From Dehalococcoidia bacterium (GTDB lineage: Bacteria > Chloroflexota > Dehalococcoidia > Lucifugimonadales > UBA3495): a DNA stretch of 64,000 bases. The notes under the pieces were generated by a model. The model was not told the DNA's origin. It worked only from the letters and a program-made list of their open reading frames with translations, and did not search any database. A program made the translations under genes and the position numbers. Where the stretch lies: assembly GCA_963663135.2 (NCBI GenBank), contig CAXXRM010000005.1, positions 353,812 to 417,811 on the forward strand, written 5' to 3'. Of the stretch, positions 33,479 through 52,009 are shown in pieces (position 1 is the first letter of the stretch; every line of letters starts with the position of its first letter).

Positions 33479-34987
33479 CTAAGGCCAGGACGGCCAAAAC
33501 TCAAGTTGAGGGGGTTGGGATATCACAGCCGCGTTGACCACCCCCTCAGACGCTTTCCCGCCGGCTCTCATTTCCCTCAGAGTCAGCCGCCGGTCACGCA
33601 TATTTCGGGCAATGAACTGCATCCGCTCCAGAACCGTCTCCGGTCGGTGATTGTGCCGCCACTTGAACTCCGTGACATACCGATGCAGGTGCTTCGAACT
33701 CGCCTGGTGATAATTCCCCATAAAACCGCGCCTGACTATTGCCCAATGGGACTCGATCCAGTTGGTCGTCACGAAATCGCGGACATACTCTCCACGAGAG
33801 TGGGCCACCGACTCATGAGCTATTCCAGGCACATTCCGATAAGCCGCATGTTCATCACTGTAGACCATTGCCCCAGACACAACTCTGGACCGGACGTAGT
33901 TTTGGACAGTAGCGCCATCAGTAGAAACGATCACCCGGGAATCCATGCGGTTGGTCCGCTCGTCCACCACTCCGATTATCGGGGTCTTGGTACCCGGACC
34001 CCGGCCAGCGTGCAACTTCTTCTTGGCATGCTTATTCCCCTCACGCCCGCCATAGTACATTTCATCGAACTGGGTGGGACCAAGAAACAACTCCATTTCT
34101 TCTTCCATGCCCCGCCGCAAGCGATGCCAGAAATGAAGAGCCATTCCATAGCAGACGCCCAGCCGGTCCGACAACATCTGGGCGGATATGCCCGTTGGCT
34201 CCTGTGATACGTCATACATGCCATCCACCCACCGCAGAAGGGAAAGGTTGGAGCTATGCATGACCGTAACGGATTTCACAGAGAAATCAGTGGAACTTGA
34301 GCCACCTCGCCGGCAGTCACGGCACCGCCACTGCCGCGGCTTGAGGTTCCTATCCACGATATCGTCCGAACCACATCTGGGGCAGCGAACGCCATCCGGC
34401 CAAAGAGTTTTTATGAACCAACGCTCAGCCGATTCCTCATCTGGAAAGTCCCTTTCATAGCGCCGCTGAGGATACCTCTTCCGTTCACGTTCAGAACGAT
34501 AATTTCCGGAATCGCCGCGTTTGCTTTCCTGCTCGGACCCAGGCTGGACCGGAGCGCGCCAGGGTCGATTCCGCAACAGTTCAGAAATAGAACGAAGCAC
34601 CTCCCCCACCTGGTCGGGGAATCGTTCCAACCGCAGGAACACGTAGTTGAGAGTTTTCCGATCGGGTATCGGTCCATCAAATCCACAGTGCTGACGAAGA
34701 GGGTCCTCGTCGGCCTCCAGGCGAGAGTGCACCCTGTTGAAAGACAGGCCTGAATCCGGATAACTGGCGATGAGGAAGGCCTTGACCATCGGGGTACGAG
34801 GGATGGTAGGGCGCCCCCGACGAGGAGCCGCGTTGGGTCCCGAGGTAAAGACGGAGAGCAATGGCTCCAGATCGACGTGATAGATGGCCGTGGCCAGATC
34901 AGAGAGACTGGAGCAAGGTTGGAGCTCCTCGGGACTACCCGAGGGTTGAAAGGTATCCGCGGTTATCGTATGATAAAGATCATCCAC
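33479..34987 (-). mobile_element. IS1595-family DDE transposase gene with an N-terminal DUF772-like extension (element ends not defined)
   Basis: Zn-ribbon CPRCGS...CRDCRR, then DEMYYGG...IIGVVDERTN...VYSDEHAAYRN...NWIESHWAIVRRG, typical of the IS1595/ISXO2-like DDE domain. GTG start at 34987. Confidence 0.75.
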
Positions 34988-35250
34988 TTTGAATCAGCAA
35001 GTTCGGGGTGGTGGTTTTGGTTCTGGGGCCGTCGCAGTTGGTGCTGTGGCGGTCCTTCTCTTTTATGAGAACATTAGCGCTATTTTACCAAAATCAGCTA
35101 TAAATCTCAATACAAAACCTGGTTTTTCCGAACCATTTCCTCCTATGAAATTGGCTTAAATCTTCGATTTTCGAAGCTTCCTGTCAGGCCTCTGCGCCGT
35201 TCCCGAAACCACCCGACCTGGCGTCGCCGGCAGCCACGAAAAGTGCTCTG

Positions 35251-35303
35251 AGTAAGAAAAAGCCCCGGCCCTTCGGAGAACGTTCGCTCCGAGTGGTCGG
35301 GGC
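35251..35303 (-). terminator. intrinsic terminator on the minus strand
   Basis: On the minus strand the GC-rich hairpin GCCCCGACCACTCGGAG-CGAACGTT-CTCCGAAGGGCCGGGGC (35262..35303) is followed by TTTTTCTT (35254..35261). Confidence 0.6.
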
Positions 35304-35736
35304 TCATCATTGCTGCTTTTGCAGGCCTTCCGGCGATACAATGTCACACCAGTGCAGAAATTGCAAGGCATAAATGGTCGGGTGTCGCGGGAAGTCTGCC
35401 GCAATTTACAGGATTCAGGGCCGGCTGACACCCTAACCTATGCCGGTGCCAGCGAATCGGACCTGCACCGCGGAGCTTCCAAGAAAAACAGGAACCGGAG
35501 ATTACAACCAGTCGAACCTGCGGCCATCCTACCCGATTCCAGGGCTATCGGGAACTCAGCCCAGGCCCATCGAACCAAGAGGGTCGGACCTCTGGCAATC
35601 CGCTTCGATCAATCGCCTAAGAGTTACTTGGCGAAATAATCCCCGATATCCATTCACCAAGTCAGGAGCACCCCAACACAGACATCATTAACCCCATGCT
35701 AAAATTCCCAGCAGGATCCCCCATGGAGCAAAAGCA

Positions 35737-37296
35737 GTGACGACCAACTTTGCCAACCGGACCCTGTACCACGGTGACAACTTGGACTTCCTACGGGGCA
35801 TGAACAGCCAGACAGTCCACCTAATTGCAACCGACCCGCCTTTCAACAAAAACAAGGACTTCCACGCCACTCCGGACAGCCTAGCATCCGGCGCCAGCTT
35901 CCAAGACCGCTGGAGTTGGCGCGACGATGTCCACGACGAATGGCTGATCGAGATTCAGCGCGACCAACCAGAGGTCTGGAGCATAGTCAAAACCACCAAA
36001 GACGTTTACGGCGATGACATGGGAGCGTACCTGGCATTCATGAGTGTCCGCCTCCTGGAAATGCACCGGGTATTGAAAGACGACGGAAGTTTATACCTCC
36101 ATTGCGATACAACCGCCAGCCACTACATCAAAGCCCTGCTCGATGCCGTTTTTGGTCCAAGAAACTACCGGAGTGAAATCACTTGGAAACGGACCAGCGC
36201 CCACAATGACACCAAGCAAGGGCGCCACCAACACGGGCGGGTCCACGATGTCTTGTTCTTCTACACAAAATCAGAGGAGTGGACTTGGAACCCCATTTAC
36301 ACTGAATACGACCCGGAATACATTAACAACTTCTACAAGTACACTGAGCCTGAAACAAGCCGAAGGTACCGTCTGGGAGATTTAACCGGACCAGGTGGCG
36401 CCTCAAAGGGAAATCCACACTACGAATTGATGGGCGTCACACGATATTGGCGACACAGCTTGGAAAGAATGAACCAATTGATGGCGGAAGGACGCATCAT
36501 TCAAACCAAACCAGGAGCAGTCCCACAATACAAACGTTACCTTGACGAAATGCAAGGAGTGCCACTCCAGGACCTTTGGACAGACATTAAACCATTGCAA
36601 TCTCAAGCGAAAGAACGCACCGGCTATCCCACTCAAAAACCTCTGACCCTGTACGAACGACTCATACTATCAAGCAGCAATCCCGGTGATATCGTGCTCG
36701 ATCCATTCTGTGGCTGCGCCTCAACCCCAGTGGCTGCCGAACACCTGGGACGACAATGGATCAGAATAGATATCTGGGACGACGCCTACCAGACCGTGCT
36801 CAACCGAATGGCCAAAGAAGGTTTGATCGTAGAACATTCCGAGGCACAACCAGGACAGCAGACGTTGACCGTTGCCAACATCCACTACGAGACCAATCCC
36901 CCGAAACGGACCGACCATGGTGAGCCGGCAGTCCTTCAACTACAAACTCCAACCGGAAAAAGAGCAATGCGGTTTCCACCCCCAAGGTCTCAGCAAGGAA
37001 GGCTGTTACTGGATGTCGGTTCATACTGCCAGGGCTGCGGACGAGATTACAGCTTTGACACACGTGTCCTGGAAGTCGACCACATAAGGCCAAAGTCAGA
37101 CGGCGGAAGCGATGCCTACGACAACCTTACCCTGCTCTGCCCGCCCTGCAACAAGGAAAAGCGGGACCGGATGACCTTGACCGGATTACAGGACTTCAAC
37201 CGCAAGACGGGACACCTTCTACCGGAGAATGAAAAGAACATTCGCCATGGACGTGGTCCACGAACAACTCCCCAAAGAAGAACCCGACGACGATAA
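35737..37296 (+). CDS. beta-class N6/N4 DNA methyltransferase fused to a C-terminal HNH endonuclease domain
   Basis: Motif IV IATDPPF near the N-terminus and the AdoMet motif VLDPFCGCAST near aa 330. At the C-terminus, CQGCG...VLEVDHIRPKSDGGSDAYDNLTLLCPPCNKEKRD is an HNH domain with a CxxC pair. GTG start 8 nt after GGAG. Confidence 0.85.
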   Translation: MTTNFANRTLYHGDNLDFLRGMNSQTVHLIATDPPFNKNKDFHATPDSLASGASFQDRWSWRDDVHDEWLIEIQRDQPEVWSIVKTTKDVYGDDMGAYLAFMSVRLLEMHRVLKDDGSLYLHCDTTASHYIKALLDAVFGPRNYRSEITWKRTSAHNDTKQGRHQHGRVHDVLFFYTKSEEWTWNPIYTEYDPEYINNFYKYTEPETSRRYRLGDLTGPGGASKGNPHYELMGVTRYWRHSLERMNQLMAEGRIIQTKPGAVPQYKRYLDEMQGVPLQDLWTDIKPLQSQAKERTGYPTQKPLTLYERLILSSSNPGDIVLDPFCGCASTPVAAEHLGRQWIRIDIWDDAYQTVLNRMAKEGLIVEHSEAQPGQQTLTVANIHYETNPPKRTDHGEPAVLQLQTPTGKRAMRFPPPRSQQGRLLLDVGSYCQGCGRDYSFDTRVLEVDHIRPKSDGGSDAYDNLTLLCPPCNKEKRDRMTLTGLQDFNRKTGHLLPENEKNIRHGRGPRTTPQRRTRRR

Positions 37297-37299
37297 GCA

Positions 37300-40053
37300 A
37301 TGAAGCAGCTTGACCAAAACCGGACCGAAAAGATGGCCGAAGAGCCAATCCGCCCCAGTGAAAATCCGCTCCTGGTCTTCATCAGCAGCACGCAGGACGA
37401 GGAATTGTCCTGCGCCAGAACTTTGGCCATCGACACGGTGGACAACTACCCAGGCATGAGGGTCTGGGCCTTTGAGGACGCCCCTGCCAGTTCCGAACGG
37501 GCCCGCGACCGATATATCAGAAACGCGGGTAGGGCTGACCTCGTGATCTGGCTCATTGGTTCAACTACCACCACTCCAATAGTTGAGGAAATCAGTGCCT
37601 GCATGAGGGCCCAAGGAAACCTTCTGGCTTTCAAACTCCCCGCGAGGAACAGAGACAATGAAACAGAGACCCTCATCAGAAGAGTGTCGGACTACGCCAC
37701 CTGGAAGACTGTGGAGAAAGTAGAAGATCTGCCGGCCCACATCAAGGCAGCCCTGACTGACGAGATGTTGAGGAGGTACCGGGACCCAGCCCCGGCCAAC
37801 CACGACCTATTCCTGAAGCAGAAACACCGAGAGAGCGTCGCGGAAACCAAGCGTCTCTGGACCACGCTGGGAGTGCCGGACGAGATCGCGGGTGACCTCG
37901 CTGGTGACCACTCGATCGGACACAAACTGCAGTTCCCTTCGTCGGGAACACTGACAGTAACCGCCCAACAAGGTTCTGGAAAAACACTGGCAGCACAGCG
38001 GTTGTACCAACAGGCGCTCGTGGACCGACTGCAGGACCACCTCCAACCTTTCCCAATCTTCCTGAACGCACGGAACATCAATGGAGACTTGAAGGACCAG
38101 ATAGAGAGAGACACTCGTGAACACGGAACCGTATACACCCAAAGGATTTTGGTTATCATCGACGCCCTAGACGAAACAGGTCGGCACAAGGGCAACGAGA
38201 TAATAGACCAAGTGCAGTCGTACACGGATGCGAACCAAGACGTGGCGGCTATAGTCATGGCCAGACCCCTGCCGGGACTAAAGTTCGATCCGAACTCCAC
38301 AACCCTTCCCGAATGCAGCGATGAAGAGTTCCTCTCCCTGGCATCAACGATGGCCGGTCGACCGGTCGACTACTTTGAGGTCCCTCACCGAATATCCTCT
38401 TCCAAGATCCCTCTCTTCGCAGTGATAGCAGGATTACACCTAAGGAATTGTGAAAACTTCACAAGATCTACACCCAGTCAGATGGTTAGCCTGCTGATCC
38501 AGAGGATTTTGGCAGAATCAGAAGATTATCCAGAGGAAACAGCCGAACTGCTGAAAAAATTGGCTGTCGCGACCATCACCTCAGGAGAGCCTGTACCTAA
38601 ATCAACAGTGGACCGAAGGCCGGCAGTGCAAGCCCACGTGGCCAATTCACGTCTGGTAGTTGAACAGGACGACAACTTTGACTTCGCAATCGCCTTGTTC
38701 AGAGAATGGTTCGCCGCCAGGGCACTCGTGGAAAGGACGGTCTCAGCATCCGAGATTGACCCAAAATCTGACAGATGGGTAGTCCCTCTGGCCATCGCCA
38801 TAAACGCGGAAGATGAAGGTCTTGGCCCGGAGATCATGGCAACCCTCTCAGTCAAGGATCCGATCCTAGCTACGTTGGTTTTAGGGGAAGTGAAACACAA
38901 TTGGTCAACGGGGGACGCTGAGGAAACCACACCATCTGGCTCGACCATAGAAATAGGACAACGCATTCGGGAAGCCATGACCAACTGGAAGGAAGGACTC
39001 GGGCCGCTGATGGCGGCCATAGGACCAACTTCACGCGAAGGAACCATCCCTCCACTTCTTGTCGGCAAAGGACCTCGACTGATCACCACAAGCTGGTATC
39101 AAGGTGAATCGCAGATGGATCCGGTAGTGGAAATGCGCGAGGTCGTGAATCACTCATTCGCTCCGACAGGAGAGGACTGGCCCGCTTGGCGCAGCACGGA
39201 AATAGAACCCACGAGAGTCTGGCAGTGGGCAACTACCAAAGATGAGTTATCCCAATCGCTTTCCAAAGAACTGAAGGGCTACAGGTTTGCGCTAGACTCG
39301 ACACAAGGAATCCATGAACTCACAGCAGAATTTGTAAAAACAATACCCAAGGCATTGTTGTCGACAGCGGACCCGCCAAAGATAGACGAACTAATCGGTC
39401 TAATCAATCAATGGACCACCAAACCGGGAGGCAGCCTTGATGACGTTGTTTTCCTCGGTCCCCATGGATATACGGTCAACCATCTGAGACTGGCTCATAC
39501 GATGCTCTCACACCTTCGAAGCGCCGGATATCAGACTATATCGGATCCTTGGCCTGGCCCGGATAAACCAACACCCACAGGTGTGCCCCAAATATGGTGG
39601 GATGAAATCTATACGCATCAGCAATTGTTAGCTCGTGCCACAGCAATATTCGATGGAGCCCTGAGAATTTACAACGACATTGTGGACCGATGGTTTACAA
39701 CCTTCGACAAGAGACACCAGATGAGTTACAAGCTTCCTGTAAGGATCCAAGGAGTATTGGTTCCAGGGGGCAATCCCAAAAGACCTGATTGGCACAGGGT
39801 GAGTCTCATGTGGTGGCCTCGGCTAGCTAATGCTGACAGCGAATCTGGAGTATTCTTTGAACTAGGAACTTGGGACCAGATTAGTGGCCAGACTGCAAAG
39901 GACCAGATGGAAAGGTCACAACAGGAATACCTTGAAGAAAGGGGAAGGTTTACCTTTTCGACTCAGATCTTCTACGGAAACGAGCAGGCACCAGCGACCA
40001 AGAGGGCGCATGACTGGTTGACGTCAGACCTTCAAAATCTAGGATGGTTATAA
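37300..40053 (+). CDS. DUF4062-like N-terminal domain + NACHT/STAND-type P-loop NTPase + ~600-aa uncharacterised C-terminal region
   Basis: The ATG lies 3 nt after the MTase-HNH stop. The N-terminus LLVFISSTQDEEL...ADLVIWLIGS matches the DUF4062 pattern. Walker A is QQGSGKT (~37972) and the NACHT-like Walker B is ILVIIDALDE (~38146). Confidence 0.7.
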   Translation: MKQLDQNRTEKMAEEPIRPSENPLLVFISSTQDEELSCARTLAIDTVDNYPGMRVWAFEDAPASSERARDRYIRNAGRADLVIWLIGSTTTTPIVEEISACMRAQGNLLAFKLPARNRDNETETLIRRVSDYATWKTVEKVEDLPAHIKAALTDEMLRRYRDPAPANHDLFLKQKHRESVAETKRLWTTLGVPDEIAGDLAGDHSIGHKLQFPSSGTLTVTAQQGSGKTLAAQRLYQQALVDRLQDHLQPFPIFLNARNINGDLKDQIERDTREHGTVYTQRILVIIDALDETGRHKGNEIIDQVQSYTDANQDVAAIVMARPLPGLKFDPNSTTLPECSDEEFLSLASTMAGRPVDYFEVPHRISSSKIPLFAVIAGLHLRNCENFTRSTPSQMVSLLIQRILAESEDYPEETAELLKKLAVATITSGEPVPKSTVDRRPAVQAHVANSRLVVEQDDNFDFAIALFREWFAARALVERTVSASEIDPKSDRWVVPLAIAINAEDEGLGPEIMATLSVKDPILATLVLGEVKHNWSTGDAEETTPSGSTIEIGQRIREAMTNWKEGLGPLMAAIGPTSREGTIPPLLVGKGPRLITTSWYQGESQMDPVVEMREVVNHSFAPTGEDWPAWRSTEIEPTRVWQWATTKDELSQSLSKELKGYRFALDSTQGIHELTAEFVKTIPKALLSTADPPKIDELIGLINQWTTKPGGSLDDVVFLGPHGYTVNHLRLAHTMLSHLRSAGYQTISDPWPGPDKPTPTGVPQIWWDEIYTHQQLLARATAIFDGALRIYNDIVDRWFTTFDKRHQMSYKLPVRIQGVLVPGGNPKRPDWHRVSLMWWPRLANADSESGVFFELGTWDQISGQTAKDQMERSQQEYLEERGRFTFSTQIFYGNEQAPATKRAHDWLTSDLQNLGWL

Positions 40054-40189
40054 GGCCACTGAGAGAGCATATGGGGAAGACAGAAGAACAACTCGGAGTG
40101 CTACGCATCATCCGTATAGCTAAACGTCGCAACCACGCAGATGGGTGCAACCAGCTCCTCCCCGGTCCAGGTAATGAAAGAAAGGAACT

Positions 40190-40282
40190 ATGCCCATCTC
40201 CAACCTCCTCTGCTCCGCCGCCGGCCCCTGTCCCTTCTGCCACCAGAAAGCAGGCATCCTGAACCGCTCCCACACAGACTGA
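40190..40282 (+). pseudogene. 30-codon 5' stub of a third operon gene (MPISNLLCSAAGPCPFCHQKAGILNRSHTD) terminated by the TGA that begins an IS3-type end
   Basis: An ATG 5 nt after AAAGGA. The in-frame stop is the first three bases of the IS3-type terminal repeat at 40280. Confidence 0.35.
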
Positions 40283-40828
40283 GGTGGACCCCATTAGTTG
40301 GACAGGATTTAGGTGGAATTAAGCGAGAGTCCCGCTGCTCCTACCAATGATACCAACACCTGTTCGGTGGACTTTCCGTCTCTTTTATCTACCACCCGTG
40401 GCATTCCTGTCCTCGTGGAACACCTCGGCCGAGGTCCGGTACCCCAGGGCCTGACGGGGCCTCCGGTCGTTGTAGAACCTGAAGTAGGCGCCCAGTTCCC
40501 TGCGGGCCTCTGCGGCGTTGGCATTGGATTTCAGGTACACCTCCCCAGAGTTCCAGCGACCCCGTATAGGTTCTCCATCTCCCGAACCACCTTGACACGT
40601 TCGTCCGCTGCTGATTACCGCGGTGGGACATCGACCGGAGGCCCAACCAATAAACCCCCACCCGCCACTTTCCCCCTGACGACAGCGGCGGGCCCAAGCC
40701 TCAAATAGCAAGCTCTGTCGGATACCTTCCTTTCAAAGTGAGAATAATTCAGGTTGAGGTCCCGCCAGCACCTTCGGATTAATTCCCGTTTTTCACGCCT
40801 GAGGGTAAAATTCGCCCTCAATCCCTAA
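40280..40828 (-). mobile_element. degenerate IS3-family remnant (terminal repeat plus broken transposase 3' end) fused to an unclassified 190-bp repeat
   Basis: It begins TGAGGTGGACCCCATTAGTTGGACAG. The minus-strand translation of ~40388..40545 gives YLKSNANAAEARRELGAYFRFYNDRRPRQALGYRTSAEVFHE, the conserved tail of rve/IS3 OrfB proteins. The upstream frames are broken. Confidence 0.6.
40802..40828 (-). repeat. internal copy of the 27-bp island-terminal repeat
   Basis: The reverse complement TTAGGGATTGAGGGCGAATTTTACCCT matches 33175..33201 at 24/27 positions. The adjoining ~190 bp (40635..40828) is homologous to 60528..60683. Confidence 0.7.
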
Positions 40829-41631
40829 TCGAAAGCACTCTGGACGGAGAAACTCAATACGCCGCAGTGGAAATATCCTTCACTGGGACCGCCGGGGATG
40901 CCGAACGGGCCATCCGAAATACCAATTTTTTGACCCAGCTCACCGGTTGCCCGGCAACTCCGGCCGTGGTCAGCGTCAAGAAGAACGCCGCTCTCGACTC
41001 CCGCATAGAGTCTGGAAGTCTTCACTGGCACTACGTCATGAAATGGGACCGGGACCTGGAATAACCGGCCAGGCACGAATTTCTCCAACACCCCTCAGCA
41101 ACGGGCAGCCTCGCAACTCTCCCGCGGTCCCAACACCACAACTCCCCTTAGGGCAACAGGCGGGCCAGTGCGCGGGTTGCCGGATGGGAAGACGAAATGT
41201 TGGCAATTAGAGGAGAAATTATGGTTGGCCACCTGAAACCCCTGGTAACGGAGGTCGGCTTGGCCGAGGCGTTAGACCGGTTGGTTGATGAACAGGACCC
41301 TCACTTAGGCAGTTGTCCAAAAGACCGGGCCCACGTCACTTCCTTGCCTTACCGCGACAGTCATTGCTGGCCCATCGTTGATAGGCAAGGTGACCAAAGG
41401 GGGTTTTGTACGCTATCATCGATAGTAACGGCGACAATTTTTCGTAAGCCCGTAGTGTTGTGCATTAAATACAGACGCTTGCCTTAGCGGGATTCACCGA
41501 ACTGATGGCCGGGTCCGGGCGGCGTCGATGCTCTTCGACGCATCTCCAAAGACGGTTGGGTAGTGCGCATATGTGCGCCAGCTTCTGACATCTTCATTAC
41601 GGCGTGCCTTGAGAGCTGCAGTGGATCGCCG

Positions 41632-44406
41632 CTATCGCTCCGACTCGTAAGACATCACCACGTTTCTGGTTTCTGGAAATGGGTCGCTCCTGCCAATGTC
41701 CAACCATTTGACAACGGCAGCGTCGTTCTCAAACCCATTTGGCGCTATTTTTGTCGCTAGCTGAGCACAGAGCAATCTTAATGTATGCACATCCCAGCCA
41801 ATGTCTTCTTGTGCATCATATTCTAGCTTCTCAGCAAGGTAACTAAGACCTTGCAACACAAGTGGCCCGATCGTATCTCGATGTGATTGGGATCCTATGT
41901 CAAACACTAACGCGGCGCAAACCAGAGCCTCTAAAAGTGCGACCCTTCGATCAGAGGCAATTATGACTCCCACTTCGCGAATCAAGTCATCTGGAACCGG
42001 ACGCAACGTCGAAGTTGCCGAGGCTGAAAGCCAAGACCGTATCGCTGCCATAGTACCTCTAACACGTGTGTCATCTTCAGACGCCAATCCTGTCCTTAGC
42101 CAAAGGGAAAAATCGTCGAAATGGTGTGGCATTGCCCTAACTAAACCCGGGATAACTGCGAACCCCAGAGCTATGCGTATATCATTTATCGGTCCGAGTA
42201 GAGAATCTTTTGACTGGCTCCGCGTCCCAAGCATGAATTCCAGTCGTCGGTAAAGGTTCTGGGCAATATGTTCGGGCATCGTAATTTCGGCTGCTACAGA
42301 ACCCACATGCCTGATCGCAGACCTAACACCTAAATTGAACCTATTTGAACTTGAAGAGAACATCTCGACTAGTTTCTCTATGTGGATTGCTATTTGCTGC
42401 TCCTCTTCAATCGACAGCACAAATGGCCGGCCCCTTCCTCTCAATCCGATAACAGCAGCTCCAACCTGGGCCAGCATATCACTTGAGTAATCCAATCCTT
42501 TGCCCTGACTCTCAGGGTTCGAAGTTAGCCACTTCAGTCTGAATGACCGCTCCGCTTCGCCTTCCTCCATTTCCGGCAGGGTAAAATAAACCCAATCTAA
42601 TGGCGAGTTGGGTGTTGTTGAGTTTTGTAGGATAGGGTCAGAGTTGCTCCAAAGAGCATTGGCGATATCTGATGAATTCTTGTCTGTGAGACTGTGTGAA
42701 ATCACTAGTGGTATTAACCTGAATGTCGCTCGTTTACGTGCATCATCGTTAGCGAGCAATCCACGTATCAGAAAACTGACGACCTCCTGGTAGCGATTTT
42801 CGTTTATAGCTGTGCGTTCGGACGGCAAATCGTCGGCGTCTATGAAATCTCCAGGGTCTGGACAATTTGTACCTGCCGCAAAGTTGTCCAATCCCACCAT
42901 TGGTGCAGTCAACAGATCGAACGCGCGACCCCTGCGGCGGTCCTTCGAGAGAGCTTCCCAAGCGCGCTCCAGCATGTTTCCTAGAGGAGGTCCCAGCCAA
43001 TTATCTTGGGCAACTCGATCAGTGCGATAGCATTCAAGCCCAAGATCCACAGTATCATTCACCATATCTGGGGGAAGGCGTAGTACTAGCCGAGACAAGA
43101 CCTCCAAGGCTACCCGCATTCGTTCAACCCCCGAAATACCACCGCGGAGTTCGTCCGACGTAAACAAGCGAGGAAGCGCATACTTAATTACACCCATGCA
43201 TAACTGGGCAATCTCCGCCACGGTTTCACCTGGTAACCTGGCAAGGTGGGTCCGTGACAGCACCCGTTGGAGCATCTTGTCCTTGTCATAAGTAGATACG
43301 CGAAGCACCAGCCTTATTGCCAGTTTTGGATTAGTCGTAACCAACTCGTCCGCTGCCAAAGTTAGAAGGTCTGACACCATAGACATAGGGAAGTCCGTAT
43401 CGCGCCCAGGGTTGTTGACTGGAGGTACTCCTGCTACTTCAAGTAAGCGAATTGCTCTATATGCGGCTATCAGGCGGTAGCGACTCAGGTTCGAATAGCG
43501 AACGCGGGTGCCCTGTCTCACTCCCACATCGAACGATGGTGCTTCATCTTGCCCATCAGTACGCATAATCGCTCGCCTGACATGGTCAGTCTCAGCTCCC
43601 GAATCGCACTTCAGGGAAGCGAGCTTAGACCATTCTCTGAAGATGCTCTGCCGGTTATTCATCGTGAGTGTGGAAGCTAAAGCCCAGCCCTCCCGCGATG
43701 CGCTTGCGATGCTTTTACCCTCTGCGGAGGCTTGTCTTAGGGAATTGAGTGCCCTTTCAACCAACGAGATTGAATCATCGTAACGGCGCGCCTCCGTTAG
43801 CAACGCAGCTTTGCGAAGCATCCATGCAGGATCACAATTCTCGACTGTCCATCCATCAAGCAATTCGTTCAGATGACCAAACTCCAGCGAATAGACTGCC
43901 CACAGACACCGTTCCTGCTGGATCCTATGTTCGATATCGGGCCCATCGTTGACGAATGGCTTCAAGGCGTCAAGACGTTGTTCAAACAGGGACAGATTGC
44001 AATCAAGACGCGCATCCGTTACCAACACAAGCGCTACCGCTATCCAAGCCTCACGTACCTCGGCCCAGTCGTCACGCGTTGCGTGAAAGCCCCCAATTGT
44101 GTGCTTCTCGCAATCGATCTCATGCAATGCTTGTTTCGCAGCAGCCTCAAGGTCAGGTGTGATCGGTTCAAGTAGGATTTCCTTGCGCCACATCAACTCA
44201 CGAATAGCTTTGAGCTGGTCTACCGGCGTGAAGTGAGAAAATGCATTTAGAATGGGCGGCTCCCATTCAACTATGCGGTGACTGAGATCAGAACGTTCTT
44301 GGCCGGATGGGAAAACTAGCCACCCTGGATAGAGTTTTCTATTGTGTGCCCAAATATCGAGAACGTTTCTGATGCGGTCCAGCGGTTCACTGTTGTTGGG
44401 CTGCAT
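41632..44406 (-). CDS. 924-aa predicted all-helical repeat protein, partner of the SIR2-like gene (function unknown)
   Basis: A long uninterrupted ORF whose ATG shares one base with the SIR2 stop (TAATG at 44404..44408). I saw no P-loop, nuclease, TIR or TM motif. Confidence 0.75.
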   Translation of the reverse strand: MQPNNSEPLDRIRNVLDIWAHNRKLYPGWLVFPSGQERSDLSHRIVEWEPPILNAFSHFTPVDQLKAIRELMWRKEILLEPITPDLEAAAKQALHEIDCEKHTIGGFHATRDDWAEVREAWIAVALVLVTDARLDCNLSLFEQRLDALKPFVNDGPDIEHRIQQERCLWAVYSLEFGHLNELLDGWTVENCDPAWMLRKAALLTEARRYDDSISLVERALNSLRQASAEGKSIASASREGWALASTLTMNNRQSIFREWSKLASLKCDSGAETDHVRRAIMRTDGQDEAPSFDVGVRQGTRVRYSNLSRYRLIAAYRAIRLLEVAGVPPVNNPGRDTDFPMSMVSDLLTLAADELVTTNPKLAIRLVLRVSTYDKDKMLQRVLSRTHLARLPGETVAEIAQLCMGVIKYALPRLFTSDELRGGISGVERMRVALEVLSRLVLRLPPDMVNDTVDLGLECYRTDRVAQDNWLGPPLGNMLERAWEALSKDRRRGRAFDLLTAPMVGLDNFAAGTNCPDPGDFIDADDLPSERTAINENRYQEVVSFLIRGLLANDDARKRATFRLIPLVISHSLTDKNSSDIANALWSNSDPILQNSTTPNSPLDWVYFTLPEMEEGEAERSFRLKWLTSNPESQGKGLDYSSDMLAQVGAAVIGLRGRGRPFVLSIEEEQQIAIHIEKLVEMFSSSSNRFNLGVRSAIRHVGSVAAEITMPEHIAQNLYRRLEFMLGTRSQSKDSLLGPINDIRIALGFAVIPGLVRAMPHHFDDFSLWLRTGLASEDDTRVRGTMAAIRSWLSASATSTLRPVPDDLIREVGVIIASDRRVALLEALVCAALVFDIGSQSHRDTIGPLVLQGLSYLAEKLEYDAQEDIGWDVHTLRLLCAQLATKIAPNGFENDAAVVKWLDIGRSDPFPETRNVVMSYESER

Positions 44407-45518
44407 TATCTTGGTTCGTTCCTGTACTCTGGCTCCCCTATAGGTACATCAGGAACAATTCTATACACAGGCCGTAGGTGTTTGGGTATAGGGGTTTCCT
44501 CTTCTTCTGGTGGTGAAGGCCAAGTTGTCTCGTCGTAGGGTCGACTTGGCTCCAGTGTATGGAGCAACCACTCGGTCGCGTATTCGTGGCGACGATACAC
44601 AGGCCAAGTCGAAGCCTCCGGGTGGTTCGCAACGTCAATTGGCACTACGCCACGCGCTTCAAGTAGGCGACGTTGATGAGGCGATAGACCCAGCCAACCG
44701 GCCAGGTAAATCTTGGGGGCTGCTTCACCAAGATTGTCGCGTACCCAGCCTGACCAACTGAGGAAGTTGGGGTCCGCGCCTGAGAAGCCGATGAGGAAAA
44801 AAACGGTCTCCATCATTGCCTGCTGGACCGTATTTACAAACGGCGCGAACTCGGTGGGGTAGGTTCGGTAGTCTTCTTCTGTAACGATGAGCGGAAATTG
44901 CGAAGGAAATGAACCATGTAACTTGATGATACGTGGATGGTCCACTATGGGAAGTTGCTTCGTACTCTGAACGACGCGGTACGGATGTTCCAAAGTCTCC
45001 GAGCTCGCGCGTTCCAATAGCGTATCCCAGTTAGTGGTGAAGACGTCGCGCCAAGGCAGTTTCAACAACCGGACATGCGCCTGTCCTGGTGTAAACTCGC
45101 TATTTCGAATGAGCTCGTTGAGGAGTCTGTACAGGTCGCTCCGCCCAAAAGCAGTATCATACTCTTGGGCCAATCTCAAAGCGTTTTCAACCGACGGAGG
45201 CACTACACTTCCGCCGTAGGAGCTACCTCCGGCACCCTCAGGATACAACTGGCGGAAGAGTTCCTCAGCTATATCGATCCACAAGGGCATGTCACGAGCA
45301 TCGAATCGGGTTTTCTGCGCGTTTCGGCTGAACCCACTACCAATCATGACGGAAGCTCTTGAGATAGGACGGATACTCAAGGCATCACGGACTTTGTTGA
45401 TATGGCTCTGGTCGGGGATGGTTTGGGTATTCTCCGACAATTCAGCTTCCTTGAGACCTATGGGCCCACTGGGATGTTCGTCTGAAGTATTATGGTCAGA
45501 TGCGACAGAGAACCGCAA
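44406..45518 (-). CDS. SIR2-like (SIR2_2-type) putative NAD+-consuming protein
   Basis: The motifs VMIGSGFSRNA, DVFTTNWDTLLERA and IIKLHGS. The TTG start at 45518 lies 4 nt from an IS3-type end. Confidence 0.8.
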   Translation of the reverse strand: MRFSVASDHNTSDEHPSGPIGLKEAELSENTQTIPDQSHINKVRDALSIRPISRASVMIGSGFSRNAQKTRFDARDMPLWIDIAEELFRQLYPEGAGGSSYGGSVVPPSVENALRLAQEYDTAFGRSDLYRLLNELIRNSEFTPGQAHVRLLKLPWRDVFTTNWDTLLERASSETLEHPYRVVQSTKQLPIVDHPRIIKLHGSFPSQFPLIVTEEDYRTYPTEFAPFVNTVQQAMMETVFFLIGFSGADPNFLSWSGWVRDNLGEAAPKIYLAGWLGLSPHQRRLLEARGVVPIDVANHPEASTWPVYRRHEYATEWLLHTLEPSRPYDETTWPSPPEEEETPIPKHLRPVYRIVPDVPIGEPEYRNEPR

Positions 45519-45522
45519 CGAG

Positions 45523-45741
45523 TTAGGTGGACACGGTCAGTTGGACAGGATTGGTGCGGAACTAAGTGATAATTCTGCCGCTCTGGCCATCGACACCGAC
45601 GCGGGTCCTGGTGCACACCTCCTTTCACTAGACTCTCACTCCGGGACATCCTGCTTCCCATGGAACACCTTGGCCGGAGTGAGGTATCCCAGGGCCCGGC
45701 GGTGCCATAGGTCGCTGTAGAACCGGAGGTAGACCAGCAGT
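45523..45741 (-). mobile_element. second degenerate IS3-family remnant
   Basis: TTAGGTGGACACGGTCAGTTGGACAGGATT... at 45523. The minus-strand translation of 45636..45741 is LLVYLRFYSDLWHRRALGYLTPAKVFHGKQDVPE*. The spacing from terminal repeat to stop is the same as in the 40280 copy. Confidence 0.55.
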
Positions 45742-45869
45742 GTCAATGGATGGGACAAAACTTACCATTGGGGCGGCGAAATGGTGGCCCACACGTACTA
45801 CGCACGGGATGGAACTATGCAGGCCTAACGGATAAAAGAGACGTCCAAGGAAGGCGTAAGGCTGTTTAT

Positions 45870-46304
45870 TCAGGAAAAGGAGAGCTCACTGTCATTGGGA
45901 TAAGTATGCCTACGGCGAGAGCGACCTAGCATACGAACATCCAAGTGACCGGTGTCCTCCAGAGGAATCAAACCATCGCGACGCAAGCTAGACGAGGGAT
46001 AGGGAACCAAATCCGACTGCGCGAACTCAAGAACCTCTTGAATAGGAATCCAGCCGCGCCCGGAGAAGCGGTCCCGGATGGCTGCCTGAAGAGGACCAGA
46101 ATCCTGCAACAACGAGTCGAAAGACATCTGACGAGCATGAACCCCCCGCCAGACGAAGTCACCTCCTGGCATGACCTTCCAAATAGCTGATTTCATACGG
46201 TCACAGCCAACCGGGTTGCCGGTGGCGAAGAAGATCGTATAACGCAGACGCCTGTCCTTCCGGAGGTAGAAACGGAGGACGTACTTCGCGCCGGCGCCGC
46301 GCAA
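45870..46304 (-). CDS. hypothetical protein (possibly a 5'-truncated fragment)
   Basis: 144 aa with a TTG start. The segment YVLRFYLRKDRRLRYTIFFATGNPVG followed by a winged-helix-like tail is only vaguely familiar, and I cannot assign a family with confidence. Confidence 0.3.
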   Translation of the reverse strand: MRGAGAKYVLRFYLRKDRRLRYTIFFATGNPVGCDRMKSAIWKVMPGGDFVWRGVHARQMSFDSLLQDSGPLQAAIRDRFSGRGWIPIQEVLEFAQSDLVPYPSSSLRRDGLIPLEDTGHLDVRMLGRSRRRHTYPNDSELSFS

Positions 46305-46544
46305 CTGGTCAGAATAATAAGAGCAAACAGCACGGTGCCGGTCATCAGGATCAGGAAGGAGCGGCGAGCCGCCATCTCTAGGAATCCCCCAGCCTAGTTG
46401 AAGCAGACTCCTGGATTTCCGAATCCTCTAACGGATGCGGAGGTTGATGGTGGGCATTTGTCTCCGGCCAAGTTGGTATGCACGGGCTCACTCCTACAAC
46501 CTGGCCCGGATGCAGAGACGGGGGTCCGGAACAACCAAGCCAAT

Positions 46545-46835
46545 TTACGGAGGATCGCTGAGCTCCACCCAAACCGCCAGATAGGTCGTGCCGTTTATCT
46601 CAATCAGCACGTCCGACCCACGGTACTCTCCCCCATGGTGGCAAATCCCCACGCTGGGCAACAAATCCCAGGAGACCCGACCGCCATCCCGACTGACCCG
46701 CGTGACACAGGGATTCCCCTCCCGAGTCCGGTGATGCCACAATGAACCATCCTGATTCCAAGTCAGAACGGCGAGGAAAGAACCATCTTCATATCGAGCC
46801 TGATTAACGACAATTAACTTTGCCGGTAGCGACAA
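46545..46835 (-). CDS. hypothetical small protein whose first codons lie inside the IS21 left end
   Basis: A 96-aa ORF. Its TTG start falls within the IS21 terminal repeat, so the N-terminus is probably an artefact of the insertion. Confidence 0.2.
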   Translation of the reverse strand: MSLPAKLIVVNQARYEDGSFLAVLTWNQDGSLWHHRTREGNPCVTRVSRDGGRVSWDLLPSVGICHHGGEYRGSDVLIEINGTTYLAVWVELSDPP

Positions 46836-46851
46836 CTAGTTTTGCCGGTCA

Positions 46852-48372
46852 ATGAAGGTGATCATCCGGTACTGGATGGGAGGTGCCGGAGTGGTTACAG
46901 ACCAGCAAGTTGTTTTACTGAGGCAGAGACGAATGGAAAGAAAGACACAGCAGACATCGGCGGCCATGGCCGGAATGAGTGTGCGGTCAGCGCGCAAGTG
47001 GCAGTGTGGACCCTTACCGTCGGAGACAGGGCAAGATCGCTGGTGGCGGACCCGGACTGATCCCTTCGACGGAGTGTGGGAGGAGGAGATCCTGCCCTTG
47101 CTTGAAGGCGAGGCCGCCGGCAGGCTCAGGGCAACGACAATTATCGAATGGTTGGAAGAGAAATTTCCCGGCCGCTTCAGCGCCTCCCAACTCCGCACCC
47201 TGCAGCGACGATTACAGGACTGGCGGGCGCTCAACGGTCCGGATCAGGAGGTCTACTTCCCCCAGGAGCATCCACCGGGCCGCGAGGCCCAGATCGACTT
47301 CACCCACTGCAACTCCCTGGGAGTCACCATCGGAGGCAGACCCTACCGGCACCTGCTGTTCCAGTTTGTGCTGAGTCATTCGGGCTGGCGCTACGCCGAG
47401 GTGGTTGCCGGCGAGACCTTCCTGGCCCTGAAGCAGGGACTCCAGAAGGCCCTGTGGGCCTTGGGCGGCGCGCCTCTGGTGATCCGCTCCGACAACACCT
47501 CGGCCCTCACCCATGAGATAAAGCGCAGCCGCGGCCGGGCCCTCAACGACAGCTATTCCGAACTTCTGGACCACTACGGCCTGCGCTCCACACTGATCAA
47601 TTCCGGGGAATCCCACGAAAACGGCGTCGCCGAGCAGGCCCACTACCGGCTGAAGGACGCCCTGGACCAGGCCCTCATGCTGCGGGGCAGCCGCGATTTC
47701 AATTCCGTCGACACCTACACGGGCTTCGTCGGCAAGGTGGTGGACCGGCGCAACCGGCTGGTAAAGGAAAAGCTGGAGCAGGAACGAGTTCATCTACAGC
47801 CCCTGCCGCCAGCTCCGGTGCCGGAATACGTCAACTACCGTGCCAGGGTGCGCAAGTGGAGCACCATCCAGGCAGCTGGCCGCACCTACACCGTGCCCTC
47901 CAGTCTCATCGGGAAGGAGGTGCAGATCCGTCTGTACGCCGAACACCTGGAAGTGTACTACAAGGACCACCTGGTGGAACGGATGGAACGCGTCAGAGGC
48001 GAACGGGAGGCCCGGGTCGACTATCGCCATATCATCGGCTCCCTGGTCCGTAAGCCAGGGGCCTTCGCCCGCTACCGGTTCCGGGAGCAGTTGTTTCCCA
48101 CCATGACCTTCCGGCTGGCCTACGACGCCCTCAAGAGGTGGCGAGGCGAACGGGCTGACGTGGAGTACGTGCGCATCCTGCACCTTTCGGCGACAACTAT
48201 GGAGTCCACGGTGGACAGCGCCCTGGCCCTGCTGCTGGAGGCCGGTGAGCCCTTTGACTACGGCACGGTCAAGGAACTGGCGAACCCGGCTCCGCCACGG
48301 GCGCCGGTGCTCAACCTGCCCAGCATGCCTGACCTCAGGGTCTACGACAGCTTGCTGGTGGGGGTGGCCTGA
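46852..48372 (+). CDS. istA: IS21-family transposase IstA
   Basis: An N-terminal HTH, an rve-type DDE core (REAQIDFTH...IRSDNTSAL...) and IS21-typical size (506 aa). Confidence 0.9.
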   Translation: MKVIIRYWMGGAGVVTDQQVVLLRQRRMERKTQQTSAAMAGMSVRSARKWQCGPLPSETGQDRWWRTRTDPFDGVWEEEILPLLEGEAAGRLRATTIIEWLEEKFPGRFSASQLRTLQRRLQDWRALNGPDQEVYFPQEHPPGREAQIDFTHCNSLGVTIGGRPYRHLLFQFVLSHSGWRYAEVVAGETFLALKQGLQKALWALGGAPLVIRSDNTSALTHEIKRSRGRALNDSYSELLDHYGLRSTLINSGESHENGVAEQAHYRLKDALDQALMLRGSRDFNSVDTYTGFVGKVVDRRNRLVKEKLEQERVHLQPLPPAPVPEYVNYRARVRKWSTIQAAGRTYTVPSSLIGKEVQIRLYAEHLEVYYKDHLVERMERVRGEREARVDYRHIIGSLVRKPGAFARYRFREQLFPTMTFRLAYDALKRWRGERADVEYVRILHLSATTMESTVDSALALLLEAGEPFDYGTVKELANPAPPRAPVLNLPSMPDLRVYDSLLVGVA

Positions 48373-49142
48373 TGATGGACGCCAACGCCATTCAGGTCCG
48401 GATCGGTGAGTTGTGCCACCGGCTGCCCACCATGGGGGCGCAGTCGGTGGCCCGCCTCACCGCCGCCGGCCACGGCGACGCCCTGGAGACCCTCCTGGAA
48501 GTGCTGGAGCAGGAGGCCGAGGATAGAAGGCAGCGGCGGATCAACAAACTCCGCAAGGAGTCCAGGCTGCCCGCGGGCAAGACCTGGGAGACCTTCGAGC
48601 ACGACCGGGTGCCGCTAAGCCTGCAACAGCAACTGGGAGAACTGGCCGACGGCAACTTCGTTGAGCGGGGGGTCAACGTCCTGGCTTTCGGACTGCCCGG
48701 CACCGGGAAAACACACGCACTTTGCGCCGTGGGCCACCGGCTGGTGGAATCGGGCAGGTCGGTGCTCTTCGCCCCGGCCTACCGGTTGGTACAGGACCTC
48801 TTGGCGGCCAAGCGGGACCTGGCGCTGCCGCGACAACTACGCAAGCTCGACAGCTACGACTTCCTGCTGCTGGACGACCTGGGCTACCTGCCCCAGGGTG
48901 CAGAGGAATCGGAGGTGCTCTTCACCCTCATCGCCGAACGCTACGAGCGTCGCTCCCTCGGCATCACGTCCAACCTGGTCTTCTCCCAGTGGGAGCACAT
49001 CTTCGCCAACCCAATGGCAACCGCGGCGGCCATCGACCGGGTGGTCCACCACTCGGTCATCCTGGAATTCGACGTCCCCAGTTACAGGACAGGAGTGGCT
49101 CAAAAACGGACCCAGAAACAGGAGGTGAACCGGCAAGAATAA
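48372..49142 (+). CDS. istB: IS21-family helper ATPase IstB
   Basis: Walker A GLPGTGKTH and Walker B LLLDDLGY. Size is typical at 256 aa. Confidence 0.9.
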   Translation: MMDANAIQVRIGELCHRLPTMGAQSVARLTAAGHGDALETLLEVLEQEAEDRRQRRINKLRKESRLPAGKTWETFEHDRVPLSLQQQLGELADGNFVERGVNVLAFGLPGTGKTHALCAVGHRLVESGRSVLFAPAYRLVQDLLAAKRDLALPRQLRKLDSYDFLLLDDLGYLPQGAEESEVLFTLIAERYERRSLGITSNLVFSQWEHIFANPMATAAAIDRVVHHSVILEFDVPSYRTGVAQKRTQKQEVNRQE

Positions 49143-49268
49143 TTGACGGAACCGGCAGAAGTAGTTGACGCTGAACACACAACTTCAACAAATACCCCAT
49201 AACCCCAAATTTCATTGCACTGCCAGTAAAAACCGGACCGGGAAAATGCTCACGACTACCGACCAAAC

Positions 49269-49294
49269 TGAGGTGGACCCAGGAAACTGGACAG
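49269..49294 (+). repeat. solo IS3-type terminal repeat TGAGGTGGACCCAGGAAACTGGACAG
   Basis: The same TGAGGTGGACCC-N6-(T)TGGACAG pattern as at 40280, 45523 and 54939, in the same orientation. Confidence 0.5.
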
Positions 49295-49343
49295 TATCCG
49301 TGTTTGTTTTCAAGCCTTTCGTTGGGCAATGGAGCGGATTGTA

Positions 49344-50277
49344 CTAAGCTGTTATCGGCACCCACGGTGTGCCCCCACGGGCCACGGCGTTCAGTTGCAA
49401 CAATAGCTTGCGTATCACCGCCACCAAGGCGACTTTCCCAGGTTTGCCACGCTGACGCAGGCCCTGATAATAGCTCCGCATTCCCCCATCGACCCGGATC
49501 ACGGACCATGTGCAAATATACAAAGCGCGGCGCACCACTTTCCGCCCGCCCCGAATAGACCGCTGTCCCCGCTTATTCCCGCTGTCTCGGGACCAAGGCG
49601 TCACGCCCACTAAGGACGCCAGGGCCTTTGGGTCCAGCAGGCCCAGTTCCGGCAGGTGGGCCACCAGGATGGCCGCCGTCAATATCCACACACCCGGCAC
49701 CGTGCGGTAGAGTGCGGCCCGCTGGGTCAGGGCAGCGCTGTTCTGCAGTAGCTCCTGGTAATCCTTGTCCAGTTTTGTAATTTCATCCTTAAGCCAGGCG
49801 ATGTGGCGGTTTGTGGATTCGGCAACGGCCGGAGATACTACCTTGTCCATTCGGCCCGATTCCTGGACCTTCTGTTCTACAAGCTGCCGACGCCGACGCA
49901 GCAAGTCCTGCAACTCTTCGAGCTCCGGCTCCGGTCTCCGGGTACAATTCTCTTGGAACACGCTGCCGAAGCGGGACAGGACCTGGGCATCCCGCGGGTC
50001 TGTTATGGCTTCATAACCGCAGGCCCGGGCGAAGGCGCGCACCCGGCGCGGATGGGCCAGGTATACCTGTATCTCGGTCTCACGCAAGCGGCTCGCCAGC
50101 GGCCGTTCGTAACCTCCGGTGGACTCACACACCGCCTTGCCAACATCCTTATCAACGAGGTGTTCCAGCAACCTGGAGATGCCCATCACGGTGTTATCGA
50201 ACCTGATAACGGGCCCCCCCCCCCGAAACAGAGACTTCCAGATTAGCCTTGCCTACGTCAATACCCGCCACTATCAT
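49344..50277 (-). pseudogene. IS110-family (DEDD) transposase interrupted by a frameshift in a G11 homopolymer
   Basis: The N-terminal part MIVAGIDVGKANLEVSVSGGG (ATG at 50277) and the C-terminal part ...PVIRFDNTVMGISRLL...ESTGGYERPL...VGVTPWSRDSGNKRGQRSIRGGRKVVRRALY lie in different frames. They rejoin if the 11-nt C run at 50214..50224 is read as 10. Confidence 0.85.
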
Positions 50278-50875: not shown

Positions 50876-52009
50876 TTAACCTGTGTTGCTTTTATTCACT
50901 TGTGACCTGATCTTGTATGATGCGTTCCCGTAGGCTCCTGTTGAGAAGGCTTTCAGCCTGTCTTTGTCGTCGGTCAGCATGAGATCTTTCTTGAGATGGT
51001 TTGCAGCGTCGTTCTTGAAAAGGTTCAGGTTGGCTACCGTTGCGGCGAGGTCCTCCTGTGGTATTGCTGCTTGCATGCTTGTTGACCAAGTTTCGGCTAT
51101 GAGGCCGATAAATCTCAGGTCGTATGCGTAGTGTCTTGTTTTCTCGTCTGGGACGTTGAGCGTGTCGTTGTCGGTTAGATTTTTGAATTCTTCTCGGGCT
51201 GTGGGTAGCCAATTCAGGAAGTTCTGGAGTTTCTCTGCTGATTCCTCGTGACCGGACGGCGTTTCCATGTAAACCTTTCTGGCTCTGGGAAACGACTGCT
51301 TAACTCCTACCTCAAGGGCCTTTACTATTGTTTTCAGGTTGTTGACGCTGAAGATGTCTGAGCTGTCGGCCTTTGGGTTGGACCGGATGGTGTCTGTGCG
51401 CTCTCTTACCCAATTTACCTTTGCCAGGGTCTCCTTTATGACATTGACCACCGGGTCTCTACCGTCAAGGTATGCCAGCTCGGAACTGCTCATCCTTTTG
51501 GACTTGTTCAGGTCCACAAACATCTGTCCGGCGTCCTGGTTGCCGAAATTTTCCATAAATTCCAGGACAACGTGGGAGTTAACCAGGTTGTCCAATTTCT
51601 CGGCGCTGTTGCTTACCTCGGCCTGTATTAGGGTGTCGTGTACGATGTGCAGTGCCTGCACCCGATGCTGGCCGTCCAGTATCTGGAGGCCGCTTTCGAG
51701 GTTCCGGAACTCGCCTCCCTCGATGGTCAGGTTTTCGCCTTGGGCGGTGAATACAAAAGGGGGTATGATCCAGTTATTGGCATCCAGGTAGTATTTCGCA
51801 ATTGCGGCGCAATGGGCTCTGTCCAGCGGCCGCTGGTAGTCCGTTTCGAGGCCGTAGAGTTCCTCTGCAGTACGTTCCGTTGCTTTCAGCAGGTCCTCGA
51901 CGGCTACTGTGGCATTGGCAATCCACCTGTTGTTTTGGCGTCTTGAACCTTGGGGTTGGCTGAAGAGGCTCATCTGTGCTTGGGGGACACTTCTTCGTGG
52001 TCTGGGCAT
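50876..52009 (-). CDS. DGQHR-domain protein (DndB-like, ParB/Srx-fold family)
   Basis: An exact DGQHR motif (LQILDGQHRVQAL) with the preceding ...YQRPLDRAHCAAIAKYYLD...PPFVFTA pattern typical of DndB-family proteins. Confidence 0.75.
   Translation of the reverse strand: MPRPRRSVPQAQMSLFSQPQGSRRQNNRWIANATVAVEDLLKATERTAEELYGLETDYQRPLDRAHCAAIAKYYLDANNWIIPPFVFTAQGENLTIEGGEFRNLESGLQILDGQHRVQALHIVHDTLIQAEVSNSAEKLDNLVNSHVVLEFMENFGNQDAGQMFVDLNKSKRMSSSELAYLDGRDPVVNVIKETLAKVNWVRERTDTIRSNPKADSSDIFSVNNLKTIVKALEVGVKQSFPRARKVYMETPSGHEESAEKLQNFLNWLPTAREEFKNLTDNDTLNVPDEKTRHYAYDLRFIGLIAETWSTSMQAAIPQEDLAATVANLNLFKNDAANHLKKDLMLTDDKDRLKAFSTGAYGNASYKIRSQVNKSNTG

Follow-up and report, generated by a model that had tools for sequence, protein, structure and literature searches.

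We analyzed a 64,000-nucleotide stretch of the genome of a Dehalococcoidia bacterium (contig CAXXRM010000005.1; this whole stretch is called the window below), whose minus strand carries a candidate anti-phage locus made of two open reading frames (ORFs), 44406..45518 (370 amino acids (aa) from the first possible start) and 41632..44406 (924 aa), exactly as given in a preliminary description made from the sequence alone. The first ORF contains the SIR2 motifs VMIGSGFSRNA, DVFTTNWDTLLERA and IIKLHGS and matches Pfam SIR2_2 with an E-value of 2.4e-19, and the last A of its TAA stop is the first A of the ATG of the 924-aa gene (TAATG, 44404-44408); the motifs and this one-base overlap had both been pointed out previously and are confirmed here. 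The features of the locus are the following, with the evidence for each in parentheses.

41620..45522, minus strand: conserved two-gene cassette, comprising the leader, both genes and about 12 nt past the stop (blastn)
45441..45522, minus strand: conserved non-coding leader of the cassette (DNA homology, hexamer spacing, in-frame stops in relatives)
44406..45440, minus strand: predicted gene of the SIR2 (NADase effector) subunit, TTG start at 45440, 344 aa, TAA stop at 44408-44406 (Pfam, PADLOC, NCBIfam, PDB, dN/dS)
44404..44408, minus strand: stop/start overlap TAATG, 1 nt, joining both genes (identical junction in the related locus L001)
41632..44406, minus strand: predicted gene of an alpha-solenoid (HEAT-like) subunit, 924 aa, counterpart of the sensor part of DSR2, that is, MID plus the C-terminal domain (CTD) (profiles, AlphaFold 2 (AF2), Foldseek, dN/dS)

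The TTG at 45518, which the preliminary description took as the start of the SIR2 gene, is merely the first start-type codon of the open frame and lies inside the conserved leader. This stretch (45522-45441) holds in-frame stops in the related loci L002, L004 and L089, located 6-12 codons upstream of the TTG start. The TTG at 45440 is invariant, aligns exactly with the ATG of L085 and L086, and is preceded at 6 nt by a Shine-Dalgarno-like AAGGAA (45452-45447), which makes it the true start and gives a SIR2 protein of 344 aa. Further upstream, the leader shows the hexamers TTGCGG (45518-45513) and CATAAT (45494-45489), separated by an 18-nt spacer. Six loci have the hexamer pair (TTGC(N2), 18 nt, CATAAT), with a varying spacer sequence, at 48-49 nt before the start; the computed distance is 45 nt for L001, where 3 nt are deleted. 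Judging by this conservation, the hexamers may act as a promoter. The DNA homology of the leader with L001, L002, L005, L010, L004 and L089 begins at about 45522, which shows that the native 5' leader was retained beside the end of an IS3-family insertion sequence (IS), and not replaced by it as had been proposed.

The extent of the cassette was obtained with blastn, using window 36000-50000 as the query and all fetched loci as the target. L001, L002, L005 and L010 align with window 41620/41621-45518 at 84-90% identity, L004 and L089 align with 41635-45522 at 71-72% identity, and no third conserved gene is found in the cassette across the fetched loci. The cassette has a G+C content of 51.5% (53.1% for the SIR2 gene and 50.8% for its partner), compared to 58.8% for the whole window and 60.5% for bases 1-30000. 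The G+C contrast noted in the preliminary description is thus real, but smaller than its spot counts had indicated.

The two ORFs match consecutive parts of the same DSR2 profiles. In the PADLOC profile Dsr2 PDLC02184 (1,222 positions), residues 53-339 of the first ORF align with positions 23-298 (E 7e-102) and residues 6-916 of the second with positions 308-1218 of 1222 (E 1e-47). Similarly, in the NCBIfam profile Dsr2 NF041819 (1215 positions), the SIR2 ORF covers positions 18-292 with 344.3 bits, and the 924-aa ORF covers positions 301-1201 of 1215 with 179.5 bits (E 1e-52). Over both databases, the SIR2 ORF covers Dsr2 profile positions 18-298 at E 1e-102, and the two ORFs together span the profiles end to end in a colinear, consecutive and non-overlapping manner. 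The summed NF041819 score of 524 bits is on par with that of the single-chain relatives of this branch (483-644 bits), and the combined product length, about 1,268 aa, is similar to that of the fused relatives (1,230-1,275 aa). These colinear matches show that a DSR2-type protein is here divided over two ORFs, the first homologous to its N-terminal part and the second to its C-terminal part, with the cut placed after the SIR2 domain and before the helical region. Besides the profile coverage, the locus shares with DSR2 a SIR2_2 domain with the Asn and His residues, a long helical C-terminal region and a defence-island setting; it differs in that two polypeptides, encoded in different frames joined by the TAATG overlap, are found where DSR2 is a single one.

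Counted from the corrected start, the catalytic Asn of TTNWD is residue 137 and the catalytic His of KLHGS residue 175; in the 370-aa ORF their numbers are 163 and 201. The GxGFS, TTNWD and KLHGS motifs are kept in the split clade. In the PDB, the SIR2 subunit has sequence matches to ThsA and to the SIR2 domain of Bacillus subtilis DSR2, and TTNWD and KLHGS line up with the catalytic motifs of these proteins.

The preliminary description had proposed either a DSR2 split into effector and sensor polypeptides or a new two-gene SIR2 system, that is, an unclassified module. The consecutive Dsr2 matches, together with fused relatives that align across the junction, support the former and refute the latter; the pair falls to an already named system by the PADLOC and NCBIfam Dsr2 profiles, an outcome that the description had itself counted against its proposal. 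A novel SIR2 system without relation to DSR2 would agree with the lack of a Pfam domain in the 924-aa protein and with the lack of a sequence match of the CTD profile to any solved DSR2. It is nevertheless extremely unlikely, and in effect already refuted, given that two independent Dsr2 profiles are matched end to end and colinearly over their last 900 positions (E 1e-47 to 1e-52) and that fused homologues exist at up to 69% identity.

Other SIR2 systems were compared as well. Thoeris ThsA (SIR2-SLOG) has the closest solved SIR2 domain by sequence (7UXT, E 7.5e-10; 6LHX, E 2e-9) and the same N/H motifs, but it is a receptor of a nucleotide signal, whereas the partner here resembles a protein-binding type of solenoid sensor. 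The PADLOC ThsA matches cover the SIR2 part only (profile positions 73-220), and neither SLOG nor TIR (ThsB) is detected by Pfam or PADLOC in the pair or in the flanking ORFs 37300-40053 and 45870-46304. For SIR2-HerA, no P-loop or HerA match occurs in the partner or the neighbours, and the conserved cassette consists of two genes only. For the short pAgo system SPARSA, the PADLOC Aga_SIR2 matches are weak (E ~1e-5) and limited to the SIR2 core, the partner matches Dsr2 and not pAgo, and no APAZ or pAgo homology is found in the pair by PADLOC. ThsA, SIR2-HerA and short-pAgo identities are therefore excluded by the absence of their partner domains, in line with the preliminary description, which had seen no HerA, SLOG or short pAgo partner next to the pair. 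SPARSA (SIR2-APAZ plus short pAgo) exists either fused or as two adjacent genes whose products form a heterodimer, a precedent for a SIR2 defence system that occurs in both layouts.

The relatives of the locus, drawn from genome contigs and ENA look-ups, show that the two-gene layout is not restricted to the window. A database search with the 924-aa protein returned about 31 CTD-only clusters of 923-971 aa (all but two of 923-929 aa) at 100-45% identity; fused relatives of 1,214-1,275 aa appear from 69% identity downward and align straight across the junction. Among the species-representative genomes, six Dehalococcoidia metagenome-assembled genomes (MAGs; L001-L005, L010) are split and remoter relatives are fused in one frame, the split layout being present in about 10 of the 63 fetched loci. 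A SIR2_2 ORF is located directly upstream in all 12 split loci examined, and immediately upstream in all six metagenomic CTD-only proteins that were looked up. The co-occurrence of both homologues elsewhere is thereby verified: the genes are adjacent and co-inherited. A scan of JGI metagenomes gave no close relatives. We also observe a fused DSR2 homologue (L006, CBDHDZ010000015.1), 52% identical to the CTD of the window, on a contig binned as a Nitrosopumilaceae archaeon, which is either an inter-domain transfer or a binning error.

The split recurs in eleven related loci, always within one and the same variable linker and with a start at the stop, and the relative frame of the two ORFs takes all three values. 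Their junctions and that of the window are as follows.

TAATG, gap -1 nt: window, L001
ATGA, gap -4 nt: L010
stop then start, gap +1 nt: L004, L085
stop then start, gap +4 nt: L086
stop then start in the same frame, gap +6 nt: L087, L088
stop then start, gap +7 nt: L089
stop then start, gap +10 nt: L002, L003, L005

The use of all three frames and the varied gaps indicate that the split is due neither to an assembly error or a one-off frameshift, nor to a single programmed-frameshift mechanism. If the two ORFs were the debris of a single-chain DSR2 gene, disrupted recently by a frameshift mutation or only apparently by an indel in a long-read assembly, the split would not be common to independent assemblies and samples at 45-100% identity, nor would at least seven junction designs each show an immediately restored start codon. 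Within the split clade, the ratio of nonsynonymous to synonymous substitutions (dN/dS) is 0.11-0.21 for the SIR2 gene and 0.14-0.25 for the solenoid gene, well under 1 in both cases, and both genes are under purifying selection. The summed profile score is on par with that of fused relatives, and the isolate genome of Bradyrhizobium sp. dw_78 has an analogous GTGA junction. What speaks for such debris is that the related genomes are MAGs, some on contigs of low coverage (2x-9x), that DSR2 homologues of the lineage (L007, L013, L024, L045, L062) are visibly broken by frameshifts or IS insertions, and that the window copy lies among IS remnants. On balance, we consider a pseudogene or artefact very unlikely and largely refuted, and we rejected it based on conservation, dN/dS and junction diversity.

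A stop bypassed by programmed frameshifting or readthrough, with the full-length single DSR2 chain as the functional product, is suggested by the tightness of the junction and, in L087 and L088, by two ORFs in one frame with only one stop and two sense codons between them, where low-level readthrough would be possible. We rejected programmed frameshifting because relative frames (0, +1, +2) and gaps (-4 to +10 nt) vary among loci and fit no single mechanism; no slippery heptamer is common to the loci, and the start codon stands right at the stop in every junction. The junction RNA has no stable or conserved structure either (z = +0.59; consensus of -0.47 kcal/mol over 8 relatives), and on the same grounds a hairpin occluding the second start, a 17-pair stem from the terminator scan, was discarded. 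Recoding is thus a highly improbable explanation of the locus.

The break always occurs in a poorly conserved stretch, after VP(I/L)xEP and before EPLERIRxVLxIWAHNRKLYPGW, which fused relatives span with about 10 variable residues. In the AF2 model of a fused relative, the break point is held in a tether of about 55 residues without secondary structure (predicted local distance difference test (pLDDT) score of 31-58). The modelled protein, P0049, was the only one under 1,200 aa; it is N-terminally short and its SIR2 part is poorly modelled, so that the linker result alone was used. The break lies between the SIR2 domain and the solenoid, in a variable tether that is predicted to be disordered. 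It corresponds to the SIR2-MID boundary of B. subtilis DSR2, where a flexible link joins residues 1-298, the SIR2 domain, to MID-CTD (PMC11850899).

In a neighbour-joining tree, 25 split and 3 fused clusters form a core of 28 (81% bootstrap). A second mixed group of split and fused members has 100% bootstrap, and the widest grouping, of 35 members, 49% only. The fused P0021/22 and P0032 are nested in the core and the fused P0036 in the 100%-supported group, and several split-to-fused or fused-to-split transitions are needed whatever the rooting. Splits at the same hinge are also observed in Rhizomicrobium (L053, ATGA), in the isolate Bradyrhizobium sp. dw_78 (L056, GTGA; NZ_JAAVUS010000005.1, 117932-132652), whose halves score 346 and 202 bits on Dsr2, and in Pirellulaceae (L057, ATGA; L054 is a 62%-identical relative). 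L053, L056 and L057 are mutually 27-31% identical and each has fused nearer relatives, and the DSR2 split arose independently in Rhizomicrobium, Bradyrhizobium sp. dw_78 and Planctomycetes. A search of the literature for a two-gene or split DSR2 found no description, and this layout appears not to have been described yet.

Fused forms nested in split-dominated groups and equal profile scores of split and fused forms argue that the two are functionally interchangeable. They weigh, together with the constant adjacency and co-inheritance of the two genes, against the idea that the proteins no longer form one DSR2-like complex and constitute a distinct two-component system, the solenoid being, for example, a free sensor or decoy, or activated by dissociation, and the SIR2 protein being otherwise controlled. 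In its favour, a recurrent and maintained fission suggests an advantage of separate chains, and the sensor part evolves faster than SIR2 (for example, 65% versus 79% identity for WIN-L004). We regard such a separation of functions as unlikely.

As the preliminary description had stated, the 924-aa product is long and helical without a recognised domain: no Pfam domain is found in it by a Pfam scan, and its AF2 model is an all-helical solenoid of about 45 helices (pLDDT 85.7, predicted template modelling score 0.84). The Foldseek matches of this model are HEAT/ARM solenoids, with generic HEAT and karyopherin folds. The experimentally characterised member of the family, DSR2 of B. subtilis 29R (PDB 8K98, 8WKN and 8YG1, among others), follows the same plan of a SIR2 NADase, a helical MID and a HEAT-like CTD, and the SIR2 domains are homologous (E 1e-11 with the family profile). 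The NADase of DSR2 is inactive until a phage protein binds the helical domain (PMC11263360, PMC11850899).

Taken together, the locus is quite probably an anti-phage system of the DSR2 type split into two genes, one for a 344-aa SIR2 NADase and one for a 924-aa solenoid sensor, expressed from one transcript with TAATG-coupled translation. Both genes would be transcribed as a single RNA, on which termination of the SIR2 gene would couple to translation of the solenoid gene via TAATG; the co-expression claimed in the preliminary description is well supported by the comparative data (conserved tight junctions, SIR2 ORF directly upstream in relatives). The 344-aa and 924-aa chains would join non-covalently as a DSR2-like oligomer, whose NADase is probably kept inactive by the solenoid until the latter is bound by a phage protein; NAD+ hydrolysis would then set in and the infection would be aborted. 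The tight coupling may hold the subunits equimolar, so that free SIR2 would be neither lethal to the cell nor out of control.

Several observations weigh against this reading, or limit how far it may be extended. All members of the branch, fused ones included, score far below the curated equivalog cutoff of NF041819, which is 1400 bits (against the 524 bits summed here), which makes the whole branch, split and fused, a divergent DSR2 subfamily. In the PDB profile searches, the CTD has no sequence match to the solved B. subtilis DSR2, the family-profile matches being confined to SIR2, and the 924-aa protein gives only spurious matches to designed TIM proteins or SIR2-only matches. Foldseek places DSR2 chains only at ranks 30-44 (TM 0.17-0.32), amid generic HEAT proteins, and they are not among the top 50 matches for the CTD model alone. 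The comparison with DSR2 C-terminal structures, proposed in the preliminary description as a check on the 924-aa protein, thus yields no sequence match, and a structural similarity no better than to generic HEAT proteins. The B. subtilis protein is, moreover, a single chain of 1,005 aa, without detectable sequence homology in MID/CTD and with a TM of at most 0.32. Given these results, transfer of the tail-tube trigger is unsupported, and neither activation by the tail-tube protein nor inhibition by DSAD1 can be assumed here; at the sequence level, no homology is detected between the solenoid and the domain by which B. subtilis DSR2 binds the tail tube. For the promoter, the -35 hexamer of the leader fits the consensus at only 3 of 6 positions, which explains why a strict sigma-70 consensus scan does not flag the leader hexamers, and an IS3 remnant lies 4 nt upstream of this hexamer. 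Finally, some split relatives look damaged. L086 (1583-2608, the partner of P0041) has KLNGS in place of KLHGS, the catalytic His being replaced by Asn, and may be an inactive copy or have a variant chemistry; the solenoid gene of L003 (6001-8766) ends early, at 850 aa, with a truncated CTD; and in L090 (2980-3687, on a contig of 2x coverage) the SIR2 ORF is truncated to 235 aa.

It is also conceivable, but rather unlikely, that the separation of effector and sensor is adaptive and has changed the mechanism, the solenoid being a detachable inhibitor or adaptor and a phage protein releasing or re-assembling the SIR2 oligomer. Activation would then proceed by subunit exchange or dissociation and not by intramolecular allostery, and separated chains might let sensor subunits be swapped between SIR2 cores. 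If so, the recurrent fission at the same hinge would be the mark of a distinct two-component DSR class.

For the split DSR2 system that we favour, the hinge has been cut repeatedly in nature with tight co-translation retained, suggesting that the covalent link between NADase and sensor is dispensable in DSR2. Such a natural two-component DSR2, carried by at least one cultured organism, Bradyrhizobium sp. dw_78, would be useful for studying how the solenoid silences and activates SIR2, through subunit titration and engineered fusions or splits. The alternation of fused and split forms is known from other defence systems, such as short pAgo/SIR2-APAZ, so the principle is not new, and a split DSR2 reveals no new biochemical principle. 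In annotation, single-gene DSR2 rules and the 1,400-bit cutoff will miss such loci or mislabel them as "SIR2 family protein" and "hypothetical protein".

The cassette is flanked by two IS3-family remnants.

45523..45770, minus strand: IS3-family 3'-end remnant, with the transposase C-terminus ...RRALGYLTPAKVFHGKQDVPE followed by the stop and the terminal repeat ...GTCCACCTAA ending at 45523; it abuts the leader
40280..40543, minus strand: second IS3-family 3'-end remnant, with its right end ...GTCCACCTCA at ~40280, about 1.1 kb downstream of the cassette

The preliminary description had located the pair between two IS3-type ends. The ends at 45523 and ~40280 are real, but they are not the two ends of one element, 40280 being the far end of the downstream remnant. 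The remnants are in the same orientation and 72-76% identical; an identity of about 76% indicates that they derive from distinct elements, both degraded, and not from a single IS present twice. A composite transposon bounded by copies of the same IS3 element was rejected, considering this identity, the shared orientation, and that both are short 3' remnants.

Other genes around the cassette are related to defence or transposition. On the plus strand, 35737-37296 encodes a fusion of an N6/N4 DNA methylase with an HNH nuclease (Pfam 1.4e-40 and 5.5e-14), and 4 nt beyond it comes a 917-aa ORF (37300-40053). This ORF has only sub-threshold matches, to DUF4062 and NACHT, and none in PADLOC; it is possibly a defence gene of STAND/NLR-like type, so far uncharacterised and coupled to the methylase-nuclease. 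On the minus strand, a 144-aa ORF (45870-46304) resembles two proteins at their C-terminal ends only, PADLOC PDC-M30A (E 5e-6) and, weakly, the TcmP partner protein, and is apparently what is left of a further defence candidate truncated by the IS3 remnant. An IS21-family element (istA/istB) occupies 46801-49178, and in two further Dehalococcoidia MAGs a copy of it interrupts the DSR2 homologue (L024 7542-9966 and L013 3612-5993, 84% and 69% identical to the window element, respectively), indicating that the same IS family repeatedly disrupts DSR2 in this lineage. Further along, a DndB-like protein (50876-52009, minus strand; Pfam 5e-24), with the other Dnd genes missing, and a PDC-S11 candidate defence protein (55244-56089, plus strand; PADLOC 4.5e-19) are surrounded by transposases of the IS110, IS4/5 and IS1595 types. 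The 33-56 kb region is an island of defence genes and ISs that has decayed and has a lower G+C content (53.7% for 33000-46500).

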